Source: an uncultured SAR86 cluster bacterium
Lineage (GTDB): Bacteria; Pseudomonadota; Gammaproteobacteria; Magnimaribacterales; D2472
Reading direction: 5' to 3'
DNA length: 64,000 nt
NCBI GenBank assembly: GCA_943788365.1
Contig: CALSPZ010000001.1
Coordinates: 1,070,572-1,134,571 of the forward strand
The first letter of the stretch is position 1. Every line of letters begins with the position of its first letter. This document shows, piece by piece, positions 21,823-46,760 of this stretch. The notes beneath the pieces are model-generated. The model worked only from the letters and a program-made list of their open reading frames with translations, had not been told where the DNA came from and ran no database searches. The position numbers and the translations under genes were made by a program.

Positions 21823-22776
21823 TTAGTTTTGAGCAAATTTATTTGTAGCAGAGACTAGAAGATGCACTATCTCTTTCTCAAAAGCAGAATGCCCTGAATC
21901 CTTTGCTATTTCAAATATAGCTTCAGGCCATCTTCTTGAAACTTCATAAGCTGTTTCCATAGGGCAAACCATGTCATATCTTCCTTGAATGATAACCGCA
22001 GGAATATCTCTTATCTTTTCTATACCATCCAACAACTGTTCTTCGTATTCAAGAAACCCCTTATTTACAAAGTAATGATTTTCTATTAATGCAAATGCAA
22101 GAGCAAAATGAGCGTTAGAGAACTCATCTATAAGACTATCATTTTTTATGAGTTTGCTAGTTGATGCCTCCCATCTGGACCATGCTAGAGCAGCATTTAA
22201 TTTGGCCTCTTCATCAGAGCCATTGAAAATTTCATTGTAAGCTTTCATAAGATTAGATCTTTTATTTTTATCAATAACTTCAATGAATTTTTGCCATTCA
22301 TCAGGAAAGATCTTACTTGCGCCTTCCTGATAGAACCAATCTAGCTCATATTGCTGAAGCATGAATATACCTCTAATTACTATCTCACTTACTGAGGAGG
22401 GGTGTAACTGAGAGTATGCTAAAGCCAATGTTGAGCCCCATGAACCTCCAAATACCATCCACTTATTAATACCAAGCTGCTGCCTTAACTTTTCTATATC
22501 AGACACTAAATCCCATGTTGTATTATTTGTAAGGCATCCATGAGGAGTACTTCTTCCACAACCTCTCTGATCAAAGACCACGATTCTGTAATATTTTGGA
22601 TCAAAAAAACGTCTTACATCTTTACTTCCACCGCCACCTGGCCCGCCGTGAAGAAATACAACAGGTTTACCATTTTTATTACCGCATTCTTCGAAATAAA
22701 TATTATGTTCAGAGCATTTTAAATAGCCTGTATTAAAAGGTTCTATGTGAGGAAAAAGGGATAGCTTATTTGTCAT
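21823..22776 (-). CDS. pip: Proline iminopeptidase
   Basis: VVFLHGGPGGGGS and the nucleophile elbow GGSWGSTLALAY. It has alpha/beta-hydrolase length and the pip-type cap. Confidence 0.9.
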   Translation of the reverse strand: MTNKLSLFPHIEPFNTGYLKCSEHNIYFEECGNKNGKPVVFLHGGPGGGGSKDVRRFFDPKYYRIVVFDQRGCGRSTPHGCLTNNTTWDLVSDIEKLRQQLGINKWMVFGGSWGSTLALAYSQLHPSSVSEIVIRGIFMLQQYELDWFYQEGASKIFPDEWQKFIEVIDKNKRSNLMKAYNEIFNGSDEEAKLNAALAWSRWEASTSKLIKNDSLIDEFSNAHFALAFALIENHYFVNKGFLEYEEQLLDGIEKIRDIPAVIIQGRYDMVCPMETAYEVSRRWPEAIFEIAKDSGHSAFEKEIVHLLVSATNKFAQN

Positions 22777-22821
22777 ATTTAGTAACTTACAAATTAATTA
22801 AAGCTTTTTCAACTATTTATC

Positions 22822-22850
22822 TTTACAAAAATATCATTATCAAGTTTAAT
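22822..22850 (+). promoter_or_regulatory. Sigma-70-like promoter TTTACA-17 nt-TTTAAT for the alkB-like operon
   Basis: Read directly: -35 at 22822-22827 and -10 at 22845-22850. The predicted TSS is near 22857, the first bases of repeat copy A. Confidence 0.4.
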
Positions 22851-22855
22851 ACTGA

Positions 22856-22926
22856 AATCGTAATTTGATCCTATTGCCGCGATATAAAAGAAAGTGCTAA
22901 AACGGTACTACTATTCCATGGATTTA
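22856..22926 (+). repeat. Leader element copy A (~71 nt)
   Basis: AATCGTAATTTGATCCTATTGCCGCGATATAAAAGAAAGTGCTAAAACGG + TACTACTATTCCATGGATTTA. The 50-nt core is identical to copy B except for one base. Confidence 0.8.
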
Positions 22927-22932
22927 ACACTT

Positions 22933-22962
22933 CAAGCTGATTTTATCAGATTTGTTATGTTT
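22933..22962 (+). terminator. Weak terminator/attenuator-like hairpin plus U-run between the two leader elements
   Basis: CAAGCUGAU-UUU-AUCAGAUUG (5+3 bp with one G.A mismatch) followed by UUAUGUUU. It is AT-rich and therefore weak. Confidence 0.3.
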
Positions 22963-22967
22963 CACTT

Positions 22968-23039
22968 AATCGTAATTTGATCCTATTGCCGCGATTTAAA
23001 AGAAAGTGCTAAAACGGAAGATGTATTCCCTAGGATTTA
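22968..23039 (+). repeat. Leader element copy B (~72 nt)
   Basis: AATCGTAATTTGATCCTATTGCCGCGATTTAAAAGAAAGTGCTAAAACGG + AAGATGTATTCCCTAGGATTTA. It lies 112 nt downstream of copy A and ends about a dozen nt before the AAGGAG SD of the alkB-like gene. Confidence 0.8.
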
Positions 23040-23065
23040 TTAATTATTAAGAAGGAGATTTTCTT

Positions 23066-24217
23066 ATGAAGTTTTTTATAAATGCAAGGTACCTAATTGT
23101 TCCAATATCATCTTTAATGACTATCTTTGGGATATTTATTGGCAGCACATATGCCTGGACTGGAGTAATACTGTTTGGCCTATACACCATAATAGATACT
23201 TTAACGAAAGATATTCATCTTAAAGCCGAGATAGATGATGATGGAAACTCATATGGCATTAAGATTTTTCAATATCTTGTTATGTATGTCATGTTGCCAG
23301 TTTTTATTACAATACAAATCATTTTGGCCTGGAGAATCTATCAATACACTTCAGGAGTAATTTTACAGAACTTATCTTTGGGATCAATTGAATATCAGAA
23401 TGGAATATCAGGCATAAATCTCATAGGCGCCGTCATATCATCAGCCTTATGGGCTGGGCTTGGCATTATTTATGGGCATGAATTATCACATAATAAAAAA
23501 GAAGGCTTTTTTGTTTCAAGACTTATCATGGCTTTAAGCGGAGCTTCTCATTTTACATATGCCCATGTATACAATCATCATCTGGATTTAGGTCATGAAG
23601 ATGATCCAGCCACTGCACCGAGAGGGAGAAATGTATATTTACATACATGGCTTTCTCATGCTGGTCAGTCAAAGTTTTCATTTGATATGGAAGCCAAAAA
23701 GCTAAAAAATCAAGGGAAGAGTTTTATAAATAAAGATAATAGATGGCTGCTTGGATATTTTTATAGCTTACCTTCAATATTCCTATTTATTTGGTCTGGG
23801 GGCTTGGTTGGGTTGGTTGCATTGGCAGCAGTTTGGATTTTATCAAACTTTCTTTTAGAGGCTTTAAATTTCATGGGCCATTATGGCTTGATAAGAAAAG
23901 ATGGTGCTGTTGAGCACAGACACTCATGGGACAATGATTCAGTTTTTACAAGCTGGTTTTTTATTGAGATTGGAAGACAGTGTGACCATCATGTCAGAGG
24001 TGAAACTTATTTTTGGGAACTTGATGATGTAGGGGGGCCTAATTATGGAATAGGCTATTTCAGTCTTTTTGTATTGACTCTATACCCTCCATTATTTAGA
24101 AAATTTGTTCACAAACATCTTGATAATTGGGATAAGAACTTCGCAACTGATGAAGAGAGGTTAATAGCAAATAAATTTAATATTGATCAACTAGGCAAGG
24201 CTTCTTTAGTTTCTTAA
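23066..24217 (+). CDS. AlkB/XylM-family integral-membrane di-iron oxygenase (alkane-1-monooxygenase-like, divergent His boxes)
   Basis: His boxes align with P. putida AlkB as I recall it: GHELSHNKK (HELGHK), SHFTYAHVYNHH (GHFFIEHNKGHH), NFMGHYGL (NYIEHYGL), GRQCDHH (LQRHSDHH). N-terminal TM helices are present. Strong SD AAGGAG. Confidence 0.75.
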   Translation: MKFFINARYLIVPISSLMTIFGIFIGSTYAWTGVILFGLYTIIDTLTKDIHLKAEIDDDGNSYGIKIFQYLVMYVMLPVFITIQIILAWRIYQYTSGVILQNLSLGSIEYQNGISGINLIGAVISSALWAGLGIIYGHELSHNKKEGFFVSRLIMALSGASHFTYAHVYNHHLDLGHEDDPATAPRGRNVYLHTWLSHAGQSKFSFDMEAKKLKNQGKSFINKDNRWLLGYFYSLPSIFLFIWSGGLVGLVALAAVWILSNFLLEALNFMGHYGLIRKDGAVEHRHSWDNDSVFTSWFFIEIGRQCDHHVRGETYFWELDDVGGPNYGIGYFSLFVLTLYPPLFRKFVHKHLDNWDKNFATDEERLIANKFNIDQLGKASLVS

Positions 24218-24228
24218 AAGATAATTCA

Positions 24229-24549
24229 ATGTTAAAGATTTTTAAGAAAAATAAAATTCCGAAGAGAGCAGCTCTCCTCCAAAGCAATATTAATTTTGAG
24301 GTATTGCCCAGAACAACTCTGCTTTCTTCGGCCCTATCGAAAGGTATAGATTGGCCACATAGATGCAAGGTAGGCAGTTGCGGAACATGCAAATGTAGAG
24401 TCGTTTCTGGAGAAGTAAAACCCAACATTGATTTTAGTTATACATTAAATCAAGAAGAGATAGATGCAGGATTTGTACTGGCCTGCCAAAGCGAGCTGCT
24501 ATCTGATATAGAAGTAGAAATAAATATTAAAAACAAGGAAAAAAAATGA
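24229..24549 (+). CDS. Plant-type [2Fe-2S] ferredoxin (stand-alone)
   Basis: 106 aa with the cluster motif CKVGSCGTCKC (C-X4-C-X2-C) plus a distal ACQS Cys. It resembles the N-terminal Fdx domain of XylA / oxygenase reductases but lacks an FNR domain. Confidence 0.8.
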   Translation: MLKIFKKNKIPKRAALLQSNINFEVLPRTTLLSSALSKGIDWPHRCKVGSCGTCKCRVVSGEVKPNIDFSYTLNQEEIDAGFVLACQSELLSDIEVEINIKNKEKK

Positions 24550-24749
24550 AAAATTTAAAAGCATTCTCAATCATAGGCTTGATAACAGCATCGGTAGGCA
24601 TTTTATTATATGCTTTTGATGCACACTTAAATTACAGAAATTTATTCTGGGCAATAGGGATATCAACCACTCTTTTAATTACACACATACTAAATATGGC
24701 TGTATATTTTAAAGTTGCTGGCGATCAGCCTTACAAATGGTTTAAATAG
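24546..24749 (+). CDS. Hypothetical small membrane protein (2 TM), third gene of the alkB-like operon
   Basis: 67 aa with two hydrophobic helices. The start overlaps the ferredoxin stop (ATGA). No family recognised. Confidence 0.4.
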   Translation: MKNLKAFSIIGLITASVGILLYAFDAHLNYRNLFWAIGISTTLLITHILNMAVYFKVAGDQPYKWFK

Positions 24750-24757
24750 AAAAAGAA

Positions 24758-24833
24758 TGGTGCCCAGAGGTGGGATCGAACCACCGACACAAGGATTTTC
24801 AATCCTTTGCTCTACCGACTGAGCTATCTGGGC
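24758..24833 (-). tRNA. tRNA-Phe (anticodon GAA), CCA encoded
   Basis: The reverse complement GCCCAGATAGCTCAGTCGGTAGAGCAAAGGATTGAAAATCCTTGTGTCGGTGGTTCGATCCCACCTCTGGGCACCA folds as a cloverleaf. The anticodon loop is TTGAAAA, and the sequence is near-identical to E. coli tRNA-Phe. Confidence 0.95.
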
Positions 24834-34388: not shown

Positions 34389-34456
34389 TAAGTAATTAAA
34401 GTAAATCTGATATTATACTCCGAACTTTTTATCATCATTTGGAATAGATATTAATT

Positions 34457-34627
34457 ATGGAATTAAAAAAATGGGAATGCATTGTATGTGGGCTTATCTA
34501 TGATGAGGCCCTGGGTTGGCCCGAAGATGGAATAGAGGCAGGAACAAGATGGGAAGATGTTCCTGAAGATTGGTTATGTCCAGAGTGTGGTGTTGGCAAG
34601 GAAGATTTTGATATGATAGAGATGTAA
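34457..34627 (+). CDS. rubA: Rubredoxin (56 aa; missing from the ORF track, which lists nothing shorter than 60 aa)
   Basis: My own translation reads [56 protein letters not shown]. Both CxxCG knuckles (CIVCG, CPECG) and the conserved W/Y/F core are present. Confidence 0.9.
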
Positions 34628-39615: not shown

Positions 39616-40222
39616 CCATCCTGAGTTATTTATTATTTCAGCTCCATCAGGTGCAGGAAAGTCTACATTAATAAGAAAACTACTTTCTTCAACTAATAAT
39701 TTTGAATTGTCTGTTTCCGCTACAACAAGACCTCCCAGAGATGGTGAGATAAATGGAGTTGATTATCAGTTTATTTCAGAAAATGAATTCAAATCTTTGA
39801 TTAATAAAAATGCATTCATTGAATATGCGAAGGTTCATAATCACAAATATGGAACATTAAAATCTTACATAGATAGAAAATTCATAGAAGGCAAGAGTAT
39901 TATTTTGGATATCGATGTCCAAGGTTTTATGCAAATAAAAGAGTCTAATATTTCAAATACATCTATATTTGTATTGCCGCCAAGCTTTAAAGTGCTTAAG
40001 CAAAGGTTGGAAGACAGACGGTCAGATACGAGAGAGGCAATTGATAAAAGGATGACTAATGCTCGCAAAGAAATTCAATTTTGCGATGAGTATGATTTCA
40101 TTATTGTAAATGATGAGATAGATATAACCATGAAAGCTCTTAAAGAGATAATATTTGAAAAAAGAAATGATTCAGACAAAAATTTAATTGAAAAGATTTT
40201 AATAGATATGTTGTCTTATTAG
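39605..40222 (+). CDS. gmk: Guanylate kinase
   Basis: P-loop SAPSGAGKSTL, TTRPPRDGEINGVDYQF, and the lid region. Confidence 0.9.
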   Translation: MQNNHPELFIISAPSGAGKSTLIRKLLSSTNNFELSVSATTRPPRDGEINGVDYQFISENEFKSLINKNAFIEYAKVHNHKYGTLKSYIDRKFIEGKSIILDIDVQGFMQIKESNISNTSIFVLPPSFKVLKQRLEDRRSDTREAIDKRMTNARKEIQFCDEYDFIIVNDEIDITMKALKEIIFEKRNDSDKNLIEKILIDMLSY

Positions 40223-40259
40223 TGCTTAAGGAATTAGAATACCCACCTAGGAGATAAGT

Positions 40260-40529
40260 ATGGCAAGAATTACAGTAGAAGATTGTTTAGAAAAAATACC
40301 AAGTAGGTTCGATCTAATCATTATGGCATCAAAAAGAGCAAGACAGCTGTCTACAACAAGCAGAGAACCTCTTGTTGAATGGGATAATGACAAGCCAACT
40401 CTTGTTGCCCTAAGAGAGATAGAAGAAGGCCTGATCGATAGAGAGACACTTGATAGAACACTTGAAGAAGATGTTCTGATGGACGGTTTTGCTGCTCCTG
40501 AAGAGGGTGAGGCTGATCCAGCTATATAA
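40260..40529 (+). CDS. rpoZ: DNA-directed RNA polymerase subunit omega
   Basis: [30 protein letters not shown]. Confidence 0.95.
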
Positions 40530-40550
40530 TAAATCTAAAAGGAGCCAGAT

Positions 40551-42740
40551 TTGACAGAACAAACGCTCCCCAAAAAATCTTTAACCAATTTCTCTGATAA
40601 GGACCTTCTTAAGGTTCCCTCCTACCTATTAGCACCTGTCAAAACATATCTTAAGGCAGTTGAAATAAAAAAAATTCAAAAAGCTTATACATTTGCTTTT
40701 ATAGCCCATGATGGGCAAAAAAGAAAAGATGGCTCTGCGTATATTTCCCACCCAGTTGCTGTCGCAAAAATAATTGCTGAACTTAAAATGGACCATGATT
40801 CAATTTGCGCAGCACTAATGCACGATGTTCTCGAAGATTGCGACGTCCAAAAAACTGTTTTAGAAAAAAACTTTGGTAAAGACGTTGCCAATATAATTGA
40901 TGGGGTAAGTAAGCTTGGAAAAATTAGCATGCAAAATAAGGCTGAAACTAATGCAAATAATTTCCAGAAAATGGCGCTAGCAATGGCAAATGATGTTCGA
41001 GTCATCTTGGTAAAGCTATGCGATAGACTTCATAACATGAGAACAATTGATTTTATGCCTAGGCATAAGCAAATTCTTAAATCTAAAGAGACATTAGAAA
41101 TGTTTGCTCCACTAGCCTTAAGAGTTGGCATGATTGATATTAAAAATGAACTTGAAGATAGAGCTTTTAGATGCCTGCATCCATTAAGGGCTGAAATGCT
41201 AGATTCTGCAATCAAAAAATCCAGCGGCGGAAGAAAAAAAATTATAGAGAAAGTAAGAAAAGAGCTTAAATCAAATTTAAAAAATAATGGTATTGAAACA
41301 GCAGCTGTTAAAGGGAGAGAAAAAAATGCATTTAGTATTTATAATAAAATTAAAACAAAACACAAACCATTTTCAGAAATATTAGACGTTTATGGTTTCA
41401 GAATTTTAGTAGACACTGTTGACGAGTGTTATAGAGCGCTTGGTATTATCCATAATTATTATTCCCCAATAGATAATAGATTTAAAGACTATATTGCAAT
41501 ACCTAAAATGAATGGCTATCAAGCACTTCATACTGGACTTCTAGCCTTAGATGCATTTCCAATAGAAGTTCAAATCCAAACGAGAAGCATGTTTGATACT
41601 GCTAATAGAGGCATTGCTGCTCACTGGGGCTACAAGACATCTGGAGAAGGTGTTGGAACTGAACTAAGAGCAACAAAATGGCTTGCCGGCTTGTTAGATT
41701 TATATAAAGAATCAAAAGATTCATCAGAGTTTGTTGAATCAATAAAAACAGATTTAGAGCCAGAAAGAGTTTTTGTTTTTTCTCCAAAAGGACATATTTT
41801 TGGACTAAAGATAGGCGCCACCCCAATAGATTTTGCATATGCTATTCATAAAGATCTAGGAGATACCATCGTTGGCTGTAAGGTAAATAGAAAAGAAGCT
41901 CCCATAAACGTAGTGCTTGAGAGCGGACAGACGGTTGAAATCATAACCTCAAAAAATAATGTAGTTATTGATCCAGCCTGGCTTAATTTCATAGTAACAA
42001 GTAGAGCTAGAAGTGGAATTAGGGCAAGATTAAGAAAGCAAAAGGTTTCATCAGCAAGAAAAGCTGGAAAAATTATGCTGGAAACTGAGCTTAAACGTTC
42101 AGGTATAAAATTATCAGATTACAAAGGGGCTACATTAAAAAGGGTTCTAGGCTCAATTGGAGTTCCATCTTTAACAAAACTAATGACTGATCTTGGCCTT
42201 GGAAAGAAAACAGGTAATATTGTTGCTCAAAAGTTTTACGAAGGTCTTCAAATAAGAAAAAACTCAGATAACCAAGAGATAAACCCTCTTAGACTGGTTA
42301 ATAAAAAAATTGAGGGCATATCAGTTGTATTTGCAAAATGCTGCAGGCCAATTTTAGGCGATGAAATCATAGCTCATTCTGATACTGAAAGAGGGATAGT
42401 AATACATCATAAGATCTGCCAACAGGTTGTTCCATTTCTAGCAAAAGATGTCAGATATCAACCAGCTCTATGGGATTCTAAAAAAAAGAGTCACTTATAC
42501 ATAGCAAAACTTAAAGTAATTTCTGAAAATAAAGTAGGAGTTCTTTCTGATGTTTTGTCTATATTTACAAGGGAGGGAATAAATGTTGTATTTGTTAATA
42601 CCAATGCCATAGATTCCAAATTTGCAAATATAGAGCTTGAAATTGAAGTCAATGACATAAATCACCTAAATACTTTGATAGATAAAGTTGATGCAAAGAA
42701 ATTTGTTTCTAATTGCTCTAGACAGATCAATGAAGGTTGA
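40551..42740 (+). CDS. spoT: Bifunctional (p)ppGpp synthetase/hydrolase SpoT (RSH family)
   Basis: The TTG start lies 7 nt after AGGAG. It has an HD hydrolase domain (HPVAVA...MHDVLEDC), a RelA/SpoT synthetase domain (YGFRILV...GYQALHT), and TGS and ACT domains. The rpoZ-spoT order is conserved. Confidence 0.9.
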   Translation: MTEQTLPKKSLTNFSDKDLLKVPSYLLAPVKTYLKAVEIKKIQKAYTFAFIAHDGQKRKDGSAYISHPVAVAKIIAELKMDHDSICAALMHDVLEDCDVQKTVLEKNFGKDVANIIDGVSKLGKISMQNKAETNANNFQKMALAMANDVRVILVKLCDRLHNMRTIDFMPRHKQILKSKETLEMFAPLALRVGMIDIKNELEDRAFRCLHPLRAEMLDSAIKKSSGGRKKIIEKVRKELKSNLKNNGIETAAVKGREKNAFSIYNKIKTKHKPFSEILDVYGFRILVDTVDECYRALGIIHNYYSPIDNRFKDYIAIPKMNGYQALHTGLLALDAFPIEVQIQTRSMFDTANRGIAAHWGYKTSGEGVGTELRATKWLAGLLDLYKESKDSSEFVESIKTDLEPERVFVFSPKGHIFGLKIGATPIDFAYAIHKDLGDTIVGCKVNRKEAPINVVLESGQTVEIITSKNNVVIDPAWLNFIVTSRARSGIRARLRKQKVSSARKAGKIMLETELKRSGIKLSDYKGATLKRVLGSIGVPSLTKLMTDLGLGKKTGNIVAQKFYEGLQIRKNSDNQEINPLRLVNKKIEGISVVFAKCCRPILGDEIIAHSDTERGIVIHHKICQQVVPFLAKDVRYQPALWDSKKKSHLYIAKLKVISENKVGVLSDVLSIFTREGINVVFVNTNAIDSKFANIELEIEVNDINHLNTLIDKVDAKKFVSNCSRQINEG

Positions 42741-46492: not shown

Positions 46493-46494
46493 GA

Positions 46495-46710
46495 TTATCT
46501 AAATCTTGATCTAGAAAATGAAAACTTTCTATTAGACTTTCTTGCTCTTTTTACAGCAGCAGCCATTAGACGTTTTCTTTTTTCAGTTGGTTTCTCATAA
46601 AATTCTCTAGCTCTTATCTCAGGAACAATAGCTGCTTTTTCACAAGCGCGTTTAAATTTTCTTAAACCAATATCAAAGTGTTCTGTTTCTTTTATAATAA
46701 TTGAAGGCAT
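46495..46710 (-). CDS. rpsU: 30S ribosomal protein S21
   Basis: [47 protein letters not shown]. Confidence 0.95.
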
Positions 46711-46760
46711 AATAAGTTCGCTAGTTTAGGCTTTAATTAGATAATTTGCAAAACATTTTT

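Follow-up and report, generated by a model that had tools for sequence, protein, structure and literature searches.

A stretch of 64,000 nucleotides from an uncultured SAR86 cluster bacterium (assembly GCA_943788365.1, contig CALSPZ010000001.1, positions 1,070,572 to 1,134,571; the whole stretch is hereafter the window, and positions are counted along it) carries two near-identical direct repeats upstream of a three-gene operon headed by a gene for an AlkB-like membrane oxygenase. Our analysis indicates that these repeats are very probably two aptamers of the SAM-II class of S-adenosylmethionine (SAM) riboswitches, standing in tandem in the 5' leader of the operon. The elements belong to the SAM-II fold family, their helices covary, the bases that contact the ligand are invariant, related copies recur in a methionine and SAM context, and both copies bear signs of selection; SAM is the predicted ligand of each. 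The same oxygenase module recurs with SAM riboswitches of more than one class in several marine lineages, which places an enzyme routinely annotated as an alkane 1-monooxygenase in a setting of methionine and sulfur supply.

Predicted SAM-II-type aptamers in tandem

The repeats lie in a 289-nt gap (22777-23065) between divergent genes, in a window with a GC content of 33.8%. Repeat detection delimits a direct repeat of 62 nt with 90% identity (22856-22917 and 22968-23029) at a spacing of 112 nt. Over the first 50 nt, the core, the upstream copy A and the downstream copy B differ at a single base (A at 22884 versus T at 22996), and over the 25 nt that follow they differ at 13 positions, with UAUUCC and GGAUUU kept. 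The GATCCTA strand near the 5' end can pair with GGATT in copy A (5 bp) and with TAGGATT in copy B (7 bp). A first-pass annotation of this DNA had described the two direct copies, the near-identical core, the diverged 3' part and this pairing, and the comparison bears it out on each of these points. The core occurs exactly twice in the window, with 0 occurrences expected from shuffles, and a looser pattern of the conserved blocks also recovers just these two sites.

In a permissive Rfam scan of 22700-23200, both copies matched the SAM-II model RF00521 from end to end, copy B with 30.2 bits (E = 5.7e-5) and copy A with 22.9 bits (E = 0.0055), the gathering score of the model being 36 bits. Other members of the same family exceed that score: one that precedes an oxygenase orthologue (L032, 36.6 bits) and two from metH leaders (L117, 39.4 bits; L062, 36.1 bits), the other metH-leader copies scoring 30-34 bits. 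Because such close family members pass it, the threshold cuts through this subfamily. The Rfam alignment places the AAUUUG, AUUGC and GCUAAAA of the elements on the consensus GAUUUG, CUUGC and GCUAAA. The nucleotides that contact the ligand in SAM-II, namely U10, U11, A20, U21, U22, U46, A47 and A49 (PMC11508383), fall within the AUUUG, AUUGC and GCUAAA blocks, and their columns are invariant in 51 sequences; these blocks make up the major-groove triplex pocket common to SAM-II and SAM-V (PMC6061858). Within 22700-23200, SAM-V (RF01826) gave no match at E <= 10, and the sole further riboswitch-family matches were weak ones to the SAM-II long-loops model (RF01726), at 16.7 and 15.2 bits, under its gathering score of 44; a single unrelated match, near E = 10, is put down to chance. 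The SAM-II long-loops alignment published by Weinberg 2010 does not contain the core strings. The first-pass annotation had proposed tandem riboswitches or attenuators with a core of no recognised class. The tandem-riboswitch part of that proposal holds; the part on class has to be revised, as the element appears to be a divergent member of SAM-II, not a class of its own, in a tandem SAM-II layout that is already published.

The predicted parts of the two copies are as follows:

22856-22926, plus strand: copy A, upstream SAM-II-type aptamer (RF00521 match at 22847-22921)
22856-22861 with 22879-22884, plus strand: copy A P1, with an A.A outer pair
22862-22866, plus strand: copy A L1 (AAUUU)
22867-22873, plus strand: copy A pseudoknot 5' strand (GAUCCUA)
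22874-22877 (UUGC) with 22896-22900 (GCUAA), plus strand: copy A P2b
22903-22905, plus strand: copy A proximal CGG
22920-22924, plus strand: copy A distal GGAUU
22968-23039, plus strand: copy B, downstream SAM-II-type aptamer (RF00521 match at 22959-23033)
22968-22973 with 22991-22996, plus strand: copy B P1
22974-22978, plus strand: copy B L1
22979-22985, plus strand: copy B pseudoknot 5' strand (GAUCCUA)
22986-22989 (UUGC) with 23008-23012 (GCUAA), plus strand: copy B P2b
23016-23019 (GGAA) with 23026-23029 (UUCC), plus strand: copy B inserted hairpin, -3.5 kcal/mol
23031-23037, plus strand: copy B distal strand (UAGGAUU)

We examined the pairing in an alignment of 51 distinct aptamers. P1 is paired in 97.4% of the cells, with AU in 43 and GC in 8 sequences at pair 2-28 and five standard pair types at pair 1-29. 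The P2b helix, UUGC with GC(U)AA around a bulged U, is 100% paired and essentially invariant, with one change from C-G to U-G. The outer helix can be drawn in two registers: 83.4% of the cells pair in the distal one (UA:42, CG:5 and UG:3 at one pair) and 96.7% in the proximal one (UA:42 and CG:4 at one pair), and as a test between the registers covariation is neutral, both passing equally. The distal-register model has 92.3% of its cells paired, a share that falls to 29-48% once the 3' partners are slid, and overall 92-98% of the cells are paired versus 29-49% in slid controls. None of 500 shuffles reached the observed pairing or covariation score; P1 and the pseudoknot covary. A further hairpin is inserted between GCUAAAAC and the distal strand. 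It folds in 49 of the 51 aptamers, is variable in sequence, extends up to 40 nt in Kangiella and is degenerate in copy A (fold energy 0.0 kcal/mol); together with the distal strand it is conserved whatever gene lies downstream. L3 is an 11-nt A-rich linker without a stem.

These elements share with SAM-II (RF00521, SAM_alpha; Corbino 2005, Gilbert 2008) the P1 hairpin and H-type pseudoknot, aligned over the full Rfam model, the AUUUG of L1, the UUGC/GC(U)AA helix and the A-rich L3, as well as a promoter a few nucleotides ahead of P1 and, at the family level, the control of metH, metY and homocysteine methyltransferase genes. They depart from the SAM-II consensus in a loop that is 4 nt shorter in the window, in the variable-length hairpin (GGAA..UUCC) after GCUAAAAC followed by a second loop-complementary strand (AGGAUU), in the AlkB-like operon that is their target in the window, and in their host, which is a SAR86-type gammaproteobacterium and not an alphaproteobacterium. 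With SAM-V (RF01826) and SAM-II long loops (RF01726) they have in common the pocket architecture, the marine distribution and the tolerance of an extra hairpin. In SAM-V, the additional stem (P3) sits in L3, after the 3' strand of P1 (PMC6061858), and, as far as the alignment rows indicate, the long-loops insert appears in the same region (PMC2864571). Unlike the SAM-V stem, the window-type hairpin is placed after the GCUAAAAC strand and not in L3.

Tandems of SAM-II with a second SAM-II, with SAM-V and with SAM-I/IV are already described, and Poiata 2009 is said to have reported such arrangements. Sherlock 2022 listed 44 tandem SAM-II doublets, in some of which the first aptamer is followed by a terminator and the second controls the ribosome-binding site, along with seven cases of SAM-II followed by SAM-I/IV (PMC9481103); its published text makes no mention of an association with an oxygenase gene. 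The leader in the window resembles the published SAM tandems in having two sensors with a hairpin between them and the second near the ribosome-binding site. It differs in that both aptamers are of the same divergent subtype and almost identical over 50 nt, and in that the hairpin between them is not a canonical terminator. As an RNA element the finding therefore adds little, SAM-II and its tandem forms being already known. The Rfam gathering score nevertheless misses a large marine SAM-II subfamily, including both copies in the window.

Orthologous loci and the wider regulon

Orthologues of the 383-aa oxygenase with 60-91% identity are found in many marine lineages, among them SAR86, Kangiella, Porticoccaceae, Woeseiaceae, Halieaceae, OCS116/Hyphomicrobiales and Acidimicrobiales; by similarity, the nearest relatives of the window are SAR86 metagenome-assembled genomes (MAGs). 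The same element occurs in the same place upstream of the gene in about 50 of the 56 orthologous loci with upstream sequence, a recurrence that favours a riboswitch. Two copies are found only with the closest relatives of the gene in the window (12 loci among the matches listed, with 81-91% protein identity), and the tandem of this type is thus limited to a SAR86 subclade among the loci compared.

In five tandem loci (L003, L004, L052, L175 and L176), copies A and B differ at 7-9 of the 50 core positions, and the differences include a compensatory change in P1 (GUCG/CGAC versus AUCG/CGAU). Because the A copies from different genomes cluster with each other, the duplication is old and both copies have been maintained; on these comparative grounds both are under selection. 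In the group that includes the window, the two cores are identical or one base apart. One of these loci (L001) has a lineage-specific base common to both copies, which suggests gene conversion between them. Across phyla the core hardly varies, so no recent duplication is needed to explain why the two cores are identical. The argument of the first-pass annotation for constraint on the core, as opposed to a recent duplication, therefore stands as far as the constraint is concerned; it needs to be qualified in that part of the identity probably stems from gene conversion.

Where orthologues are without the element, a SAM-I/IV riboswitch (RF01725) scores above its gathering score just upstream (L029, L031, L047, L049, L050 and L051). 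Two further tandems have a different composition. One, in a gammaproteobacterial MAG (L054, 2754-2953), has a SAM-II match of 35.2 bits followed by a SAM-I/IV of 63.9 bits, which is the published SAM-II then SAM-I/IV arrangement; the other, in a Halieaceae MAG (L045, 2716-2968), has two different SAM-II matches of 30.0 and 31.7 bits. Both look independent of the SAR86 tandem, and tandem SAM sensors have apparently evolved on this oxygenase gene repeatedly and independently. The module is conserved in SAR86, Kangiella, OCS116 and Acidimicrobiales, where it is routinely annotated as alkane 1-monooxygenase, and it is predicted to belong to the SAM regulon through SAM-II alone, through SAM-I/IV alone or through tandems. 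That an oxygenase module annotated as 'alkB' should belong to the SAM regulon over so wide a phylogenetic range is, as far as our literature search goes, unreported.

To survey the family, we scanned metagenomes with a pattern in which the pseudoknot core is fixed and P1 is unconstrained; it recovered the element on at least 119 marine contigs; the counts of downstream genes refer to the matches listed among these. The element precedes a five-domain MetH on 45 contigs, the AlkB-like gene on 36, a secreted protein of ~586 aa with no Pfam match on 12, a homocysteine S-methyltransferase on 5, a MetY-type enzyme of the pyridoxal-phosphate-dependent kind on 4, and other genes on a few. At the family level it thus appears to control a coherent methionine and SAM regulon, and from this regulon together with the scores it follows that the element is part of a marine SAM-II subfamily that straddles the Rfam threshold. 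As published, the SAM-II regulon of cultured Proteobacteria comprises metY, metA, metX, metC, hom and metW only (PMC4239095).

Several uncharacterised downstream genes of the survey are candidate new members of a marine SAM regulon. The 586-aa protein, a secreted lipoprotein, accounts for L106, L174, L098, L108, L088 and 7 more loci. A secreted protein of 131 aa follows the core at 3 loci among the matches listed (L077, L126 and L118), a thioredoxin-like protein at one (L081), and an 876-aa protein whose N-terminus resembles TonB-dependent receptors by eye at another (L163).

Promoter, switching and alternative readings

The leader features outside the aptamers are:

22822-22850, plus strand: putative sigma-70-type promoter (-35 TTTACA at 22822-22827, 17-nt spacer, -10 TTTAAT at 22845-22850)
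22926-22961, plus strand: hairpin and U-rich stretch in the linker between the copies (inner stem 22933-22954)
23052-23068, plus strand: translation initiation region (Shine-Dalgarno (SD) sequence AAGGAG at 23052-23057, 8-nt spacer, ATG at 23066-23068)

The promoter had been proposed in the first-pass annotation, and its fate is mixed. A consensus scan of 22650-23150 rejects it, reporting no promoter on the plus strand, and the -10 hexamer is without A at position 2. The hexamers are nonetheless present, and the position of the -35 box is conserved: a TT[TG]ACA box occurs in 59 of the 147 distinct family leaders versus 4% of random 60-mers, 47 of the 147 have it, like the window, 36-37 nt ahead of P1, and in 48 leaders a -10-like hexamer is correctly distanced from it. 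The same promoter arrangement was reported for SAM-II by Corbino 2005 (PMC1273637). Because of the comparative box position and this precedent, transcription likely starts on the first bases of copy A (predicted start about 22856-22858), and the picture of a leader of ~210 nt that holds both copies, with the promoter just ahead of copy A, is retained.

In each of the 7 tandem loci that come from genomes, a hairpin is predicted in the linker, with differing sequences and energies of -6.4 to -11.8 kcal/mol. A U-rich tail follows it only in the window, L001, L002 and L005, and none is present in L003, L004 and L052. The linker hairpin may be a weak AU-rich terminator or a mere insulating spacer. 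Downstream, the SD sequence sits 14 nt past the distal strand of copy B. We infer an OFF direction and the mode of action of each copy as follows. With SAM plentiful, both sensors would turn the operon down, and with SAM low, as under sulfur or methionine shortage, the operon would be expressed. Copy A would possibly act on transcription through the weak linker hairpin and copy B on translation, and two sensors in series would make repression tighter and steeper.

Two structural models, both of which appear to fit the pairing data, can be drawn for the ligand-bound state. Model A takes it to be a three-way junction, with a peripheral hairpin and with the loop paired to the distal AGGAUU. In Model B it would be a classical SAM-II fold, the UCC of the loop pairing with the proximal GGA that immediately follows GCUAAAAC; hairpin and distal pairing would then represent the ligand-free state, and SAM binding would free the strand UUCC..AGGAU, which would pair with the SD region. 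The classical-looking SAM-II copies of L045 and L054 have, by eye, a contiguous outer helix of 2-3 bp, which favours Model B. So does the distal strand of some metH leaders, which by eye pairs with all of L1 over 11-13 bp, since an L1 that is paired throughout could not form the triplex of SAM-II in its ligand-bound state.

Strong complementarity between the released strand and the SD region is seen in L032 (-18.9 versus -7.9 kcal/mol in shuffles, z = -4.6), L013 (z = -4.3) and L012 (z = -3.9), and in the metY leaders the duplex of strand and SD reaches -8.97 versus -4.23 kcal/mol in shuffles. This sequestration signal is strong in Acidimicrobiales, Porticoccaceae, Woeseiaceae and the metY leaders, is reversed in the leaders of the 586-aa lipoprotein, and lies at z of about +0.4 to +0.8 in SAR86-type and alphaproteobacterial leaders. 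The complementarity in several lineages, along with the expected OFF logic, counts in favour of Model B, and its absence from the SAR86 and alphaproteobacterial leaders counts against Model B as a general mechanism. A partition-function test over the whole initiation region was not significant. Because SD complementarity varies by lineage, we therefore propose no general platform model.

Two types of metH leader display the extended L1 pairing: in the L059 type (L059, L084, L124 and L158) GUGAUUUGAUC pairs with GAUCAAAUCAC over 11 bp, and in the L167 type (L167, L125, L061, L149, L157 and L113) the L1 pairing runs to ~13 bp with one bulge. Separately, a comparison of SD accessibility with the aptamer free and with the aptamer removed was rejected as biased, as the removal of pairing partners can only free the SD.

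Several points weigh against reading the repeats as a functional SAM-II tandem. Both copies in the window score under the RF00521 gathering score. The hairpin with U-run at 22933-22962, put forward in the first-pass annotation as terminator-like, is weak, with an energy of -7.2 kcal/mol and z = -1.5, and a terminator scan of 22650-23150 found none, leaving no canonical terminator after copy A. The small AAGAA/UUCUU hairpin after copy B, said to hold the SD in its loop, gains nothing in stability over shuffled sequence (z = -0.08), and the window-type leaders L001 and L002 display no specific SD complementarity (z = +0.4 and +0.5). The target is not a recognised methionine or SAM gene. Finally, because of the A.A mismatch at the base of its P1, its degenerate hairpin and its lower score, copy A may be a weaker or decaying sensor.

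The alternative that fares best, though we judge it improbable, keeps a SAM-II-like fold and reverses its sign: the three-way junction would be the bound form of an ON switch, and without SAM the SD would be paired to the distal strand together with the 3' half of the hairpin. The distal pairing, at 5-7 bp, is indeed longer than the proximal one of 3 bp and covaries, the hairpin and distal strand are kept whatever the downstream gene, and the SD-complementary strand of the Acidimicrobiales and Porticoccaceae leaders (z = -4.6 in L032 and -4.3 in L013) would sequester the SD without SAM. However, the same aptamer and complementarity precede metY, where activation by SAM would be metabolically senseless, and every SAM-II or SAM-V switch characterised so far works in the OFF direction (PMC6061858, PMC1273637). 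Moreover, the 11-13 bp pairing of the distal strand with L1 in some metH leaders is incompatible with a ligand-bound triplex, and the SAM-II copies of L045 and L054 use the contiguous outer helix of 2-3 bp.

We give still less credence to an aptamer that descends from SAM-II but has come to bind a different ligand, such as S-adenosylhomocysteine or another sulfonium or methylthio compound. The scores below the SAM-II threshold, the extra hairpin after GCUAAAAC and the atypical regulated gene could all be read in this way, but every ligand-contact block is invariant, an identical core precedes metH, metY and homocysteine methyltransferase genes, and orthologues of the target gene carry bona fide SAM-I/IV riboswitches. 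A pair of DNA operator sites, which the first-pass annotation had offered as its alternative, or a mobile repeat of the REP or MITE type can practically be dismissed: the two near-identical intergenic direct copies and the recurrence of the core at many loci would suit it, but the RNA pairing is preserved by compensatory changes, the element resembles SAM-II, lacks dyad symmetry and always lies on the sense strand between a positioned promoter and an SD, just 2 copies occur in the 64-kb window, and the other loci, among the matches listed, all fall in one regulon of methionine or SAM genes.

The oxygenase module and its possible function

The operon downstream of the predicted tandem SAM-II riboswitch consists of three genes:

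23066-24217, plus strand: gene 1, AlkB-like membrane diiron oxygenase, 383 aa (PF00487, FA_desaturase, E = 1.9e-20)
24229-24549, plus strand: gene 2, 2Fe-2S ferredoxin, 106 aa (PF00111, E = 4.6e-17)
24546-24749, plus strand: gene 3, small hydrophobic membrane protein, 67 aa (no Pfam or NCBIfam match)

The oxygenase goes by the names 'alkane 1-monooxygenase' or 'fatty acid desaturase' in public sources, and no NCBIfam model matches it or the small open reading frame. It is a distant homologue of the AlkB structure 8sbb (E = 4.7e-24 over 240 residues) with the histidine motifs kept. Like AlkB (PDB 8sbb, 8f6t), it combines a membrane diiron fold and the motifs HELSH, HVYNHH and CDHH with an adjoining electron-carrier gene. 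Unlike AlkB, its partner is a 2Fe-2S ferredoxin and not a rubredoxin, and it is found in a SAM regulon instead of a context of alkane degradation, being under a SAM riboswitch in the window and having metY-type neighbours in some lineages. The ferredoxin gene lies directly downstream of the oxygenase gene in 51 of 53 loci, and a homologue of the 67-aa protein is found downstream in 47 of 50.

Some loci depart from this order. In L029-L031 (~2757-2987), a gene for a small hydrophobic protein, whose C-terminal motif resembles that of the 67-aa protein by eye, stands between the SAM-I/IV riboswitch and the oxygenase and not after the ferredoxin. A gene for a bacterial-like globin (L047, 4202-4561) lies between oxygenase and ferredoxin in a Pseudomonadota MAG, and two Rhodobiaceae MAGs (L050 and L051) have a similar gap at that place.

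The neighbouring genes appear to point to methionine supply. In Kangiella, of which there are cultured carriers (L010 stems from Kangiella sp. HZ709), a divergent MetY-type gene under SAM-I adjoins the operon, and in Acidimicrobiales the order is SAM-I/IV, MetY-type gene, SAM-II-type element and oxygenase. A formyltransferase-family gene lies downstream of the operon in L045. A gene for an OmpW-family channel follows the operon in L008 (4832-5488) and in L054 (4777-5579), where it has a SAM-I/IV riboswitch of its own (63.8 bits). AlkL of the Pseudomonas alk system is a member of the OmpW family, and by analogy this neighbour suggests the uptake of a small hydrophobic substrate.

Associations between riboswitches and genes have repeatedly predicted enzyme functions, and the present one leads us to expect that the module helps to supply methionine or sulfur to bacteria unable to reduce sulfate: SAR86 is without sulfate uptake and assimilatory reduction (PMC3358033). 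As a tentative and rather doubtful proposal, the three-gene module might be a hitherto overlooked system by which marine bacteria assimilate organosulfur compounds or methyl groups and which is switched on at low SAM. The membrane monooxygenase may hydroxylate a methyl thioether, for instance converting dimethylsulfide to methanethiol, which MetY-type enzymes could turn directly into methionine. Our hypothesis, which is sheer conjecture, is that the module acts on a methylated sulfur compound of hydrophobic character and sets free methanethiol or some other precursor of methionine. A 2026 review lists DmoA as the sole enzyme for the step from dimethylsulfide to methanethiol (PMC13360808), and a literature search found no paper linking this oxygenase family to SAM riboswitches, OmpW or the oxidation of dimethylsulfide. 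If the proposal were true, SAR86 and other lineages without sulfate assimilation would gain a second route from dimethylsulfide to methionine, and part of what hydrocarbon surveys of the ocean count as 'alkB' would have to be assigned to the sulfur cycle. The association in any case counsels caution, as marine 'alkB' is not always a marker of hydrocarbon degradation (compare PMC13488336).

On the other side of the leader gap lies the divergent neighbour:

21823-22776, minus strand: prolyl aminopeptidase gene

The first-pass annotation gave the extent of this gap correctly but considered it the only long non-coding stretch of the window. A longer one, of 328 nt without open reading frames of at least 90 aa, is present at 40223-40550, and a permissive Rfam scan of 40100-40700 gave chance-level matches only; smaller gaps lie at 46493-46745 and 34389-34626. 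Directly after the three-gene operon, a tRNA gene is found on the minus strand (24761-24833, 72.3 bits), and it is the sole Rfam match over its gathering score in the whole window.

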